From Clostridiales bacterium GWB2_37_7 (GTDB lineage: Bacteria > Bacillota > Clostridia > Lutisporales > Lutisporaceae), in NCBI GenBank assembly GCA_001797185.1, contig MGOS01000111.1:11646-25063 (forward strand): a DNA stretch of 13,418 nucleotides, written 5' to 3'. A model generated the notes under the pieces. It ran no database searches. It saw only the letters and a list, made by a program, of their open reading frames with translations, and had not been told where the DNA came from. The stretch's first letter is position 1. Every line of letters begins with the position of its first letter. Below, piece by piece: positions 8,560 to 13,418 of this stretch. Made by a program: the position numbers and the translations under genes.

Positions 8560-8711
8560 AATCAGCCACCAAGCGTGCAATTCGGTCAGCATCCTGAGTT
8601 CCTTGAAGATTATCTTCCACACAATGTAAGTAGCACTTTTTATGAGTGGTGAATATACTAATATATGGTGCGACCACATATAATTTAGTATGTAATTGAG
8701 AGGGATTTGCA

Positions 8712-9674
8712 ATGATTAAGCTTGCTTTGATAGGCTGTGGAAAATGGGGAAAGAATTATTTGAAAACCGTAACTGCAATAGAGGGCAGTGAATTGAAGTG
8801 GGCCTGCGACCTTGATGATCAAAAGCTAAATCAAGCCGCTCCTGCTTACCCAGAGACGATGTTCACTGAAAACAAAGCAGATATATTGAATGACAGTGAG
8901 GTGCAGGGGGTTATTATAGCCACAACACCGGTCAGCCATTACTTGCTGGCGAAGGAAGCAATAAACAAAGGCAAAGCTGTTCTCGTAGAAAAGCCTGTGA
9001 CAATTAACAGGGAAGACAGTAATGATCTGATTGAATTGGCTGCTGCACAAAATACCATATTGATGGCCGGCTACTCATTGATTTACCATCCTGCTGTCAA
9101 AAAGATAAAGGGGCTCCTGGAACAAAAAGATATTATTGATGAGCTATATTACTTGAACATGTCCAGAACCAGTTCTGCCTCTCAGGCTCTAAGCGTAGAT
9201 GTTCTTCATGATCTGGCAGTTCATGATATCTATCTTTCCCGCCACTTGATAGGGGTCGACCCCATCTGGGTAATTGCCCATGGGGAAAGTTACAGTAAAT
9301 CTTGTTATAACAACGTTATTAATATACTGATGGGTTTCCCGGATGGTAAAATAGCTTCTATATTTTCAAGTTTCATTCATACCGAAAAAACCAGGAAAAT
9401 TACACTGGTCGCATCAAAAACAAAATTAGTATTTGATGATACACAGACCACCGATAGAAAAATCCAACTCTTCGTTAATGGAGAGCTGGCGCATTTCTTG
9501 GCAGTAGAAGAAAATTTAGAACCTCTGACACAGGAGTGTCTTCATTTTATCGAATGCATTAGAGATAACAAGGAACCCCTTAGCGGCAGAGAAAATATAG
9601 ATTTTGTGGCAAAAATAACTGATTGCATTTCCGACTCTCTCGCAAAAGGCGGAGAAAAAGTCATCATCCGCTGA
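8712..9674 (+). CDS. Gfo/Idh/MocA-family NAD(P)-dependent oxidoreductase. It is probably a UDP-sugar 3-dehydrogenase of the GnnA/WbpB/NtdC type.
   Basis: N-terminal Rossmann motif MIKLALIGCGKWGKNY, 320 aa, RBS GAGAGGGA 7 nt before the ATG. It sits in a cluster with a DegT-family aminotransferase. Confidence 0.8.
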   Translation: MIKLALIGCGKWGKNYLKTVTAIEGSELKWACDLDDQKLNQAAPAYPETMFTENKADILNDSEVQGVIIATTPVSHYLLAKEAINKGKAVLVEKPVTINREDSNDLIELAAAQNTILMAGYSLIYHPAVKKIKGLLEQKDIIDELYYLNMSRTSSASQALSVDVLHDLAVHDIYLSRHLIGVDPIWVIAHGESYSKSCYNNVINILMGFPDGKIASIFSSFIHTEKTRKITLVASKTKLVFDDTQTTDRKIQLFVNGELAHFLAVEENLEPLTQECLHFIECIRDNKEPLSGRENIDFVAKITDCISDSLAKGGEKVIIR

Positions 9675-9715
9675 TGGAGACGGTAAGCATGATAATCAGA
9701 TAAGTGGGTGAAATT

Positions 9716-10702
9716 ATGTTGGTTGTAAAGAGCTATTCAAGAGAACTTGAGAATGAATGGGAGGGATTTGTCGATTCCTCAGTGAACGGCACTTTTATGC
9801 AGGAGAGAAAATTCCTGGGCTATCATCCTTCAGACAAGTTTTCAGATCATTCTCTGATATTTATTGAGGATAAGAAAATCATTGCCGTTCTTCCTGCTGC
9901 CGTAGTACAACAAGAGGATAAACGCATCCTATATTCTCACCCCGGTGCTTCCCATGGAGGGCTGATTATCAAGTCTAGTCTAAGCACTAAAAAATGCTTG
10001 AAGTTAGTAAGCGCCCTTATTGAATATTGTGCCATGACCGGTTTTGACTATATACGGCTAAAACCCGTTCCGAGGATTTACCATAGTGGGCTTTCGGACC
10101 AACTTGACTTTGCATTAAGGTTCTCGGGGTTTGAAATTGAGTATACAGAGCTGGCTACAGCCCTTGAGCTAAAGAAAGGCAAGAATCATTTTTTAAAGCA
10201 TGTGATGAGTTCCACCGCTTTGCGAAACTATCAAAAGGCACTGAAAAGTGGACTTTCGGTTATTGAAGATGCGGATATAAATGATTATTGGGCTGTGTTA
10301 GAGAAAAATCTTGAACTTAACCATAATGCAAAGCCTACACATACATTTAAGGAAATCAAATACTTAAAAGAACTTTATCCTGATAGGATCAAGCTCTTTG
10401 CTGCTTATAAAGGGTCAATCCTTACTGCGGGCGTTCTCGTGTTTTTACTGAACGAAAGAGTAATAAACTGTTTTTATATTGCCCACGACGACCGATACCA
10501 ACACATGCGGCCGTTAAATCTGGTTTTTGGTTATATGATGGAGTGGGGAGGTCAAAACAGTTTTTCTTATTTGGATTGGGGTATTTCCACTGAGGGAAAA
10601 GGAAGCCGGGTTAATACCGGGCTGTTCCAGTTCAAAGAAGGCTTTGGAGGTCATGGTGTGTTACGGGAAAGTTATTTGTATGACGTAAACAATACTAGAT
10701 AG
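9716..10702 (+). CDS. FemAB-like/GNAT-fold acyl- or aminoacyl-transferase family protein (Acetyltransf_6-like)
   Basis: The ~330-aa ORF has an N-terminus typical of the FemAB-like acetyltransferase fold (SRELENEWEGFVDSS...TFMQERKFLGYH). The start is ambiguous: ATG at 9716 (weak SD GGGTGA) or an in-frame GTG at 9704, as in the ORF track. Confidence 0.5.
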   Translation: MLVVKSYSRELENEWEGFVDSSVNGTFMQERKFLGYHPSDKFSDHSLIFIEDKKIIAVLPAAVVQQEDKRILYSHPGASHGGLIIKSSLSTKKCLKLVSALIEYCAMTGFDYIRLKPVPRIYHSGLSDQLDFALRFSGFEIEYTELATALELKKGKNHFLKHVMSSTALRNYQKALKSGLSVIEDADINDYWAVLEKNLELNHNAKPTHTFKEIKYLKELYPDRIKLFAAYKGSILTAGVLVFLLNERVINCFYIAHDDRYQHMRPLNLVFGYMMEWGGQNSFSYLDWGISTEGKGSRVNTGLFQFKEGFGGHGVLRESYLYDVNNTR

Positions 10703-10719
10703 TTTAGTGGGGTAGTGCA

Positions 10720-11415
10720 ATGAAAATAGCAGGTCATCAACCGAATTATATTCCCTGGCCGGGATACTTTGTTAAGATGGTACAGTGTGATATTTTTTTT
10801 ATTTTAGATACTGCTCAGTTTCAAAATGACGGTTCATTGGATAATAGGAATCTTATCAAAACTTCCCAAGGGACTCAGATGCTTACAGTGCCGGTCAAAC
10901 GTAAAGGCATGGGCTTGCAGCGATTTGATGAAGTTATTGTTATACCGGGTTGGAAAAGGGATCATCTTATGGCACTCAAAGTAAACTACGCAAAAGCACC
11001 TTATTTCGAAGAAGTTTTCCCGATGCTGGAGCAGGCATTGCAAGATACCGGGTATCTTATAGATACCAACATAGCTTTTATCAGGCTTGTACATGACCTG
11101 CTGGGACTGAAAACAAAGCTTGTTTTTGTATCAGATTTACCTCAATTTGCCGATCTTAGAAAAAGTGAACAGATCGCTGCAATCTGCCGCCACTTTTCTG
11201 CTGACTGTTACCTGTCCGGCGTTGGAGCGAAGGCATATATTCAACCCGAGATTTTTGAAGAACAAGGCATTCAGTTGGAATATCTGGCCTATCAGCCTGT
11301 TACATATCCACAGCTTTGGGGTAGCTTTATCCCTAATCTGTCTATCGTTGATATGTTATTTAACTGTGGGGCGGAGGACACACGCAAGCTTTTGTTGAGA
11401 GAGGTGCAAGTATGA
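10720..11415 (+). CDS. WbqC-like family protein, a common component of O-antigen/glycan clusters with unknown catalytic role
   Basis: 231 aa. The N-terminus MKIAGHQPNYIPWPGYF matches the conserved WbqC-family start (MKxAIxQPxYxPWxGYF), and the size fits. Confidence 0.65.
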   Translation: MKIAGHQPNYIPWPGYFVKMVQCDIFFILDTAQFQNDGSLDNRNLIKTSQGTQMLTVPVKRKGMGLQRFDEVIVIPGWKRDHLMALKVNYAKAPYFEEVFPMLEQALQDTGYLIDTNIAFIRLVHDLLGLKTKLVFVSDLPQFADLRKSEQIAAICRHFSADCYLSGVGAKAYIQPEIFEEQGIQLEYLAYQPVTYPQLWGSFIPNLSIVDMLFNCGAEDTRKLLLREVQV

Positions 11416-12386
11416 CCAGGGTACTGTTTTTTTCACATGATTTGAAATATACTCTTGGGCTGCCGCAGGGTTTTAGGGAACTGAACTGCCCTGTTTTTGT
11501 CCTGAGGGATTTAAGTAGAAGTTCTATAAAAGAGGCAGTTGACCACTTTAGGCCTGACCTTATGATAACAACGGGATGGGCTTACCGCCGGCATAAACGT
11601 GAGCATGTAGATGAATTGGTCAAAAGAGCTGCTAAATATAAGGTGAAACATGTCTATTGGGCAACTGAAGATCCAAGATGGACCCAAGAGTGTTCCTTCA
11701 AGTGTATTGAAATCTATAAACCTGATGCAGTTATGACCATACATCCTGATAGTGTAAATAAATACAGGGAGCTGGGGCTTCCTGCCAGGCATCTGGATTT
11801 TGGCTGCAATCGGTCGTTCAATAAGGTTGAACCTCCAAGCAGTAAATATAATTATGATGTGGCTTTAGTCGGAAACGGCGGCAAAGCCTGGGAATCCTAT
11901 CGGAAGGATAGCGTTCAGATACTTTTAAGGCCCTTGGTGGAAAGGGGCTATAACCTTGCGATCTGGGGCAAGAGATGGGACCGTTTCAACGAGGAGTTGA
12001 TGGGTTTTAAGCTTCCGAAGCATATGCTCAAGGGAGAGCTGCCCTATGAGGAAACCAACAAGGTTTATAATTCAGCCAAAATAATAATCGGTTTGCAAAA
12101 CGACCAAACAATGCTGACTTCCCGGACTTTTGAAGTACTGGGTTCAGGCGGGTTTTTGCTGACAGTATCTACGAAGTCCGTCAATCATTTGTTTACAAAC
12201 AATGTTCATCTGACATGTTCATCCTCCCCGGTCGATACAGTCAGGCTTGTTGATTACTATTTGAAAAATGAGGCGGAGCGTCATGCAATAGCACGAAACG
12301 GGCAGCAGGAGGTCTACTCAAAGCATACGTATAAGGAACGTGCCAGACAAATTCTTGATTTCTATAGTTTGGTTGAAAGGAATTGA
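11412..12386 (+). CDS. CgeB-type (Glyco_trans_1_2-like) glycosyltransferase family protein
   Basis: 324 aa. The C-terminal motif RTFEVLGSGGFLLT resembles the RxFEalacG signature of CgeB/DUF3880-type GT-B proteins. Its ATG overlaps the previous stop (ATGA) and is preceded by SD GAGAGAGGTG. Confidence 0.55.
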   Translation: MTRVLFFSHDLKYTLGLPQGFRELNCPVFVLRDLSRSSIKEAVDHFRPDLMITTGWAYRRHKREHVDELVKRAAKYKVKHVYWATEDPRWTQECSFKCIEIYKPDAVMTIHPDSVNKYRELGLPARHLDFGCNRSFNKVEPPSSKYNYDVALVGNGGKAWESYRKDSVQILLRPLVERGYNLAIWGKRWDRFNEELMGFKLPKHMLKGELPYEETNKVYNSAKIIIGLQNDQTMLTSRTFEVLGSGGFLLTVSTKSVNHLFTNNVHLTCSSSPVDTVRLVDYYLKNEAERHAIARNGQQEVYSKHTYKERARQILDFYSLVERN

Positions 12387-12387
12387 A

Positions 12388-13248
12388 ATGGATAATCAGA
12401 CAACTATTAAACAGAAGGTTTCTCTAATGGGTACTAGCATTACTGGCGAATCTGATGCAAAGGTTACTTTTTATCCAGCCCCGCCTAATACAGGTGTAAT
12501 ATTTATCCGTAATGACCTGCCAGGCTGCCCTAGAGTAAAATGTTCATTTGAAAATGCAAAGGTTGAGCATCGATGGACGTCGCTGATACATGAAAATATT
12601 CGTATTGTCCATACAGAGCATGCTCTGGCAGCAATTTCAGGGTTGGGGTTGACTAATGTATTTGTTGAGTTGGAACAGCCCAGCTTGCCTGTGACACCGG
12701 ATTACGGCAGTAAAGAGTTTGTACGGGTTCTCTTGGACGCTGGAATAGAAGAACAACAATTTATGCAGGAAAAGATTAAAATACGTAAGCCAATTATTAT
12801 TTTTAAAAGAGATAGATTTGAGAGCTTTAAAAATGAAAAGCTGCTGATAGCACTGCCATACGATGGGTTCAAGTTAACTTATATTCTTGATTATCCTAAT
12901 CTGCCGCTATTATATCAAAATGTTGAAATAGACATTAACCCCCAAACCGTTATTAAGGAATTAGCGGATGCTCGTTCTTATGTAATTGAATCGGAGTTTG
13001 AAGAAATGATAAGCTTGACCGGAAAGGTCAGCGCAAACGATCTGGTAGTCAGAACCGGAGCTGAACGAGGAGAATGGCAATGGCCAAATGAACCTGCCCG
13101 CCATAAAGCACTCGATCTTCTTGGGGACCTTAGCTTACTTGGGAAAAAGATTCAGGGGCACGTGATAGGTATCAGATCCGGTCACCGGTTAAACCACGAG
13201 TTATGCAAAAAAATTTATAGGGAGTGTAAAGATGATTGCTTTGGCTAA
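12388..13248 (+). CDS. lpxC: LpxC-family deacetylase (UDP-3-O-acyl-N-acetylglucosamine deacetylase fold)
   Basis: Strong motif-level match to LpxC: TIKQKVSLMGTSITGESDAKVTFYPAPPNTGVIFIRNDL; IVHTEHALAAISGLGL; ARHKALDLLGDLSLLG; GHVIGIRSGHRLNHEL. The preferred start is the ATG at 12388 with SD AAGGAA 5 nt upstream. The longer ORF from 12340 overlaps the preceding gene and lacks an SD. Confidence 0.85.
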   Translation: MDNQTTIKQKVSLMGTSITGESDAKVTFYPAPPNTGVIFIRNDLPGCPRVKCSFENAKVEHRWTSLIHENIRIVHTEHALAAISGLGLTNVFVELEQPSLPVTPDYGSKEFVRVLLDAGIEEQQFMQEKIKIRKPIIIFKRDRFESFKNEKLLIALPYDGFKLTYILDYPNLPLLYQNVEIDINPQTVIKELADARSYVIESEFEEMISLTGKVSANDLVVRTGAERGEWQWPNEPARHKALDLLGDLSLLGKKIQGHVIGIRSGHRLNHELCKKIYRECKDDCFG

Positions 13249-13418
13249 ACCCATGCTTGGTATAGAGGAAAAAATACTTGTCAATGAAGTTCTTTCCAGT
13301 GGAAAGCTAGCCCAGGGAGAATATGTGGAAAGGTTTGAACGGGACTTTGCCGTATTCCAGGGCAGTAAGCATTGCGTCGCCACTTCTTCAGGAACCTCGG
13401 CCCTTCACGGGGCACTGC
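13231..13418 (+). CDS. DegT/DnrJ/EryC1/StrS-family PLP-dependent sugar aminotransferase, truncated at the window edge
   Basis: MIALAKPMLGIEEKILVNEVLSSGKLAQGEYVERFERDFAVFQGSKHCVATSSGTSALHGAL matches the N-terminus of the ArnB/WbpE/GnnB-type aminotransferases. SD AGGGAG lies 8 nt before the ATG. Confidence 0.8.

Follow-up and report, generated by a model that had tools for sequence, protein, structure and literature searches.

LpxC catalyses the step that commits Gram-negative bacteria to lipid A, which most spore-forming Firmicutes do not make. In the branch leading to GlcN3N lipid A, C3 is first oxidised and transaminated and N3 acylated; an LpxC-family enzyme then deacetylates N2, which is finally acylated. 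A Gfo/Idh/MocA 3-dehydrogenase and a DegT 3-aminotransferase also act on a UDP-GlcNAc-type sugar in the WbpB/WbpE/WbpD and archaeal UDP-GlcNAc 3-dehydrogenase pathways to 2,3-diacetamido sugars, which retain the N2 acetyl group and add a second acetyl. Deacetylation followed by ligation is the logic of BshB/BshC and MshB/MshC, where the deacetylase is of the LmbE/PIG-L family. BshC is the ligase acting after the deacetylase in bacillithiol synthesis, although its reaction has itself never been reconstituted, and a ProRSx-GT4-WbqC-LmbE operon has already been published. In B. subtilis, CgeA, a protein of the spore crust, is reportedly glycosylated by CgeB (PMC13577073).

An ‘lpxC2 region’ of Bacillota has been noted and called a vestigial remnant, its flanking genes having ‘broad and non-specific annotation’ and no pathway being proposed (PMC11448272, Microbiol Spectr 2024). 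Here, we analysed a locus of the same type on a groundwater metagenome contig of Clostridiales bacterium GWB2_37_7 (the window, 13,418 nucleotides in full) and defined its gene cassette over 54 loci from about 50 species. These include the published examples Ca. Formimonas warabiya (strain DCMF) and Sporomusa acidovorans, silvacetica and malonica (loci L023, L032, L036 and L068), while the fourth example, Desulfofarcimen (Desulfotomaculum) acetoxidans, is represented by the cassette glycosyltransferase only.

Fold and active site of LpxC2

The window encodes an LpxC-family zinc N-deacetylase paralogue of 286 aa, here LpxC2 (PF03331; 12388..13248, + strand). Family membership was computed directly by profile search (197 bits, E 5e-58), and PaLpxC matches the protein with an E of 1e-33, although its TIGR00325 score of 145.7 is below the equivalog cutoff of 187.25. 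The AF2 model (pLDDT 90.1) has a TM of 0.86–0.88 to PaLpxC. The ATG at 12388 is most likely the true start, judging from its ribosome-binding site; a GTG at 12340 was considered and is less likely.

LpxC2 shares with canonical LpxC the two-domain fold, the zinc ligands (His, His, Asp), the general base Glu, the His/Asp pair, the Lys, and an aromatic residue for uracil stacking (residue roles from PMC6286764). The active site is intact by direct computation: Glu77, His78, His239, Lys240, Asp243, Asp247 and His266 are all present in the window protein and invariant in 53 clade members, with all seven catalytic and zinc residues unchanged across relatives at 37–81% identity. The zinc-binding residues, on which a sequence-only reading of this DNA had made its LpxC assignment depend, are thus retained. 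Unlike canonical LpxC, the clade has Ser at the position of Ec Thr191 and Tyr in place of the uracil-stacking Phe (Ec Phe161), both in 100% of members, and His75 and Trp63 are newly invariant. The acyl-chain passage, formed by Insert II, is remodelled by a three-residue deletion and a gain of charged residues, the substitutions being Gly209 to Lys/Asn/Arg, Met194 to Glu/Asp and Gly192 to Ile. The UDP-contacting residues Tyr169 and Lys240 are kept, and a nucleotide-sugar substrate is therefore favoured. On the most likely reading, LpxC2 is a working zinc N-deacetylase that has left lipid A service.

Phylogeny and hosts

A phylogeny of the kind suggested by the sequence-only reading places the window copy apart from canonical LpxC, in a separate LpxC2 clade that is monophyletic in 98 of 100 replicates. 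Identity to canonical LpxC is 28–38%, and 38% at most. Set against its relatives, the window LpxC2 is itself oddly divergent: its identity to them is 70–72%, where the other cassette proteins reach 85–94%.

The named hosts are mostly monoderm spore-formers, comprising Clostridium, Anaerosolibacter, Ca. Formimonas, Desulforamulus, Desulfocucumis, Bacillus, Neobacillus, Metabacillus and Heyndrickxia; LpxC2 also occurs in Desulfotomaculia, and the diderm hosts are the spore-forming Sporomusa and Propionispora. We take all of the named hosts, including the only diderms found, to belong to genera of endospore formers. One locus related to the window (L022) carries the label Calditrichales.

Neither lpxA, lpxD nor lpxB lies within 10 kb of LpxC2 in any of the 54 loci, and fabZ is near it in none, whereas a canonical control locus reads lpxC-fabZ-lpxA-lpxI-lpxB-msbA. 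Most LpxC2 hosts are without LPS. In the diderm Sporomusa, LpxC2 is a second copy apart from the LPS cluster (PMC11448272), which contains a separate lpxC1.

Composition and conservation of the cassette

Profile matches across 8712–13418 recovered the six genes named by the sequence-only reading, in the order it gave and all on the + strand: Gfo/Idh/MocA, FemAB-like, WbqC, CgeB/YkvP-family glycosyltransferase, LpxC2 and the start of DegT. The genes are separated by gaps of 42, 17 and 1 nt or overlap by 4 and 17 nt, and this tight packing marks them as an operon. Within DegT the window reaches a stretch of N that represents a scaffold gap, and stops there; past it, the source contig continues DegT and then encodes an ATP-grasp ligase, the seventh cassette gene.

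The neighbourhood comparison that had been suggested for related genomes bore out the grouping, with only the seven cassette genes conserved: each family occurs in 40–53 of the 54 loci, and the next commonest in 8. Gene order is constant within clades, while the wider surroundings are variable and island-like. A third LpxC2-like lineage again lies beside Gfo, DegT and glycosyltransferases. Direct computation of dN/dS gave 0.11–0.24 for all seven genes, indicating purifying selection, with LpxC2 at 0.16 (0.22 among species lacking DegT). Some loci are reduced: WbqC or ATP-grasp is missing in some Anaerosolibacter loci, and Heyndrickxia retains LpxC2 and WbqC only, neighboured by methyltransferases, a GNAT and an MFS transporter. 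Across the 54 loci, the cassette encodes no acceptor protein, exporter, flippase or polymerase.

The oxidoreductase (8712..9674, +; PF01408, 72 bits) is a proposed NAD-dependent nucleotide-sugar 3-dehydrogenase, present in 50 of 54 loci with a dN/dS of 0.22. Among NCBIfam models it matches the archaeal UDP-GlcNAc 3-dehydrogenase best (117 bits, far under the cutoff of that model), and its second-best PDB match is 7bvj, which we take to be GnnA. The DegT/DnrJ/EryC1 PLP aminotransferase (13232..13418, +; PF01041, 52 bits) is represented by its N-terminal 62 codons and continues past the window. A full-length orthologue is nearest to the 3-aminotransferases QdtB, 7b0d, WbpE and NtdA, although ArnB and perosamine synthase score similarly. 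That Gfo and DegT together perform 3-amination, as the sequence-only reading held, is plausible. At least four Clostridium lineages have independently lost or truncated DegT while keeping Gfo intact. Strict coupling of Gfo to DegT fails to explain this loss, short of an aminotransferase working in trans or a difference in chemotype. In Bacilli, a different, divergently transcribed Gfo and DegT pair adjoins the same core, and this replacement suggests that the pair is functionally required.

The WbqC-family protein (10720..11415, +; PF08889, 224 bits) is a predicted amino-acid:aminosugar ligase. Its structure, predicted directly, has a class-I-aaRS-like (HUP) fold that most closely resembles BshC, although identity is just 9% and the cassette protein is a 231-aa minimal domain without the BshC coiled coil. 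Pairs of a PIG-L deacetylase and WbqC recur in unrelated glycan clusters. The FemAB-like, GNAT-fold transferase (9716..10702, +; PF02388 27 bits, PF13480 24 bits, TIGR03019 42 bits) occurs in 50 of 54 loci (dN/dS 0.17), and its family profile matches 9wqw, an ‘aminoacyl-tRNA-dependent peptide synthase’ in the PDB, with an E of 1.3e-4. We propose that it may be an aminoacyl transferase, possibly aa-tRNA-dependent, or an acyl transferase; the donor could be acyl-CoA rather than aa-tRNA. The GT-B glycosyltransferase (11412..12386, +; PF13524 105 bits, PF12996 (YkvP_N) 42 bits; dN/dS 0.13) has both Pfam domains in common with CgeB/YkvP of spore-surface glycosylation in B. subtilis, an organism without the LpxC2 cassette. 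Over 93% of its length it is 40% identical to YkvP, a B. subtilis spore protein, and its homologues are annotated ‘CgeB family’ or ‘spore maturation protein CgeB’.

A sigma-K-type promoter motif

Upstream of the oxidoreductase gene lies a sigma-K-type (mother-cell, late-sporulation) promoter-like element (8630..8660, +), with a −35 of GTAGCA at 8630–8635 and a −10 of (G)AATATACTA at 8651–8660. By direct computation, 39 of 50 loci carry the motif AC-N16/17-[AC]ATAnnnTA at 56–103 nt 5′ of the gene that opens the cassette; the background rate is 0.036 per 300 nt, and the boxes are kept across lineages while the spacers are unrelated. Mapped C. difficile sigma-K promoters, with which the motif agrees, read GTAACA / (C/A)ATAnnnTA; the −10 of the cassette motif begins with A and not the textbook C, CD1133 of C. 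difficile bears an identical GAATATACTA, and TAGCA variants of the −35, such as the GC variant in the window, are known (PMC3789822 Table S7). From the motif, mother-cell, late-sporulation expression is therefore predicted. A second −10 box, CATATAAT (8677..8684, +), stands 18 nt after an AC and is conserved in the upstream regions of clade A only; it has been described as a sigma-K/sigma-E −10 (PMC3789822) and may likewise work in the mother cell. No consistent sigma-K-type motif was found upstream of the divergent DegT-Gfo pair of Bacilli.

Proposed pathway

On balance, we favour LpxC2 as an active deacetylase in a sporulation-specific accessory cassette of endospore-forming Firmicutes, self-contained and with its seven enzymes transcribed together, which would make a diamino sugar decorated with amino acids for the spore surface and not endotoxin. 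We infer the substrate, step order, acyl-group identity, acceptor and product as follows. Gfo/Idh/MocA would oxidise UDP-GlcNAc at C3, and DegT would transaminate the 3-oxo product to UDP-GlcNAc3N. One amide-forming enzyme, FemAB-like or ATP-grasp, would then acylate or aminoacylate N3, LpxC2 would remove the N2 acetyl group, and the amine so exposed would receive an amino acid from WbqC, as a BshC-like ligase. Finally, the glycosyltransferase would pass the finished diamino sugar to an acceptor on the spore surface.

The sequence-only reading had also raised the recruitment of an LpxC paralogue to deacetylate an amino sugar, which the FemAB-like enzyme would then re-acylate. That outline is supported and is extended by the ATP-grasp gene, the sigma-K-type promoter and the endospore-forming host genera, which it had not seen; it is corrected in that WbqC, with its BshC-like fold, is the best candidate for re-acylating the freed amine, instead of or alongside the FemAB-like protein. 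The order of chemistry matches that of GnnA/GnnB with LpxA/LpxC/LpxD. The cassette differs from that branch in having no left-handed beta-helix acyl-ACP transferases in its main form, its amide formers being FemAB-like, WbqC (aaRS-like) and ATP-grasp, in a presumably non-lipid product, and in its sporulation-type promoter. Where the WbpB/WbpE/WbpD and archaeal pathways use a simple acetyltransferase, the cassette has a deacetylase and three ligase/transferase genes instead. The deacetylate-then-ligate logic is common to bacillithiol and mycothiol synthesis, but the deacetylase here is of the LpxC family, and 3-amination and two further ligase/transferase genes are additional to BshA/BshB/BshC and MshA/MshB/MshC.

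Alternative explanations and implications

The same seven enzymes might instead yield a small, soluble glycoside stored within or around the spore, for instance an aminoglycoside-like metabolite or a conjugate akin to bacillithiol or mycothiol. The glycosyltransferase would then join GlcNAc to a small acceptor and LpxC2 would deacetylate the glycoside, after which amino acids would be attached by WbqC, ATP-grasp and the FemAB-like protein. A glycosyltransferase, a deacetylase and a BshC-like ligase reproduce the BshA/BshB/BshC layout, neither an acceptor protein nor a flippase, polymerase or exporter accompanies them, and the reduced Heyndrickxia locus fits as well; sigma-K in C. difficile also drives small-molecule genes, e.g. 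dpaA. We nevertheless regard this as unlikely, given that those CgeB/YkvP members that have been studied belong to the spore coat or crust and glycosylate protein, and that the retained Tyr169 and Lys240 favour a nucleotide sugar before transfer. Tailoring of a vegetative envelope polymer (a secondary cell-wall polysaccharide, S-layer glycan or capsule), with promoter and host range coincidental, appears distinctly improbable: the motif recurs at a fixed position amid unrelated spacers far above its expected frequency, the named hosts are all of genera known to form endospores, diderms included, and the glycosyltransferase family is spore-associated. In its favour, WbqC, DegT, Gfo and PIG-L occur together in ordinary Wzx/Wzy clusters of non-spore contexts, recurrent DegT loss resembles surface-antigen variation, and the cassette surroundings are island-like.

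A functionless vestige of an ancestral diderm Firmicute would account for a lone lpx gene in monoderms, for syntenic regions in the diderm Sporomusa, and for the DegT stubs and Anaerosolibacter losses that resemble decay. The selection analysis largely refutes it, the constraint on LpxC2 persisting where DegT is gone, and the invariant active site, co-inheritance with six partner genes, conserved promoter and consistent, non-random clade-specific substitutions leave it a very slim chance. Slimmer still is that of the other proposal of the sequence-only reading, in which a diderm with 2,3-diamino lipid A simply has its ordinary lpxC next to gnnA/gnnB. Although Gfo, DegT and LpxC constitute the GlcN3N enzyme set and Sporomusa is a diderm, this proposal is opposed by the sub-cutoff equivalog score, the separate clade, the mostly monoderm hosts, the remodelled acyl passage, the absence of lpxA/D/B and fabZ from the neighbourhood in all 54 loci, genes that adjoin lpxC in the canonical control, and the second copy in Sporomusa, which has its own lpxC1 in the LPS cluster.

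Beyond PMC11448272, the cassette is now delimited over 54 loci, with purifying selection, a sigma-K-type promoter and a BshC-like partner, and the vestigial reading is contradicted. In the reading we favour, LpxC2 would serve endospore formers in decorating the spore surface.

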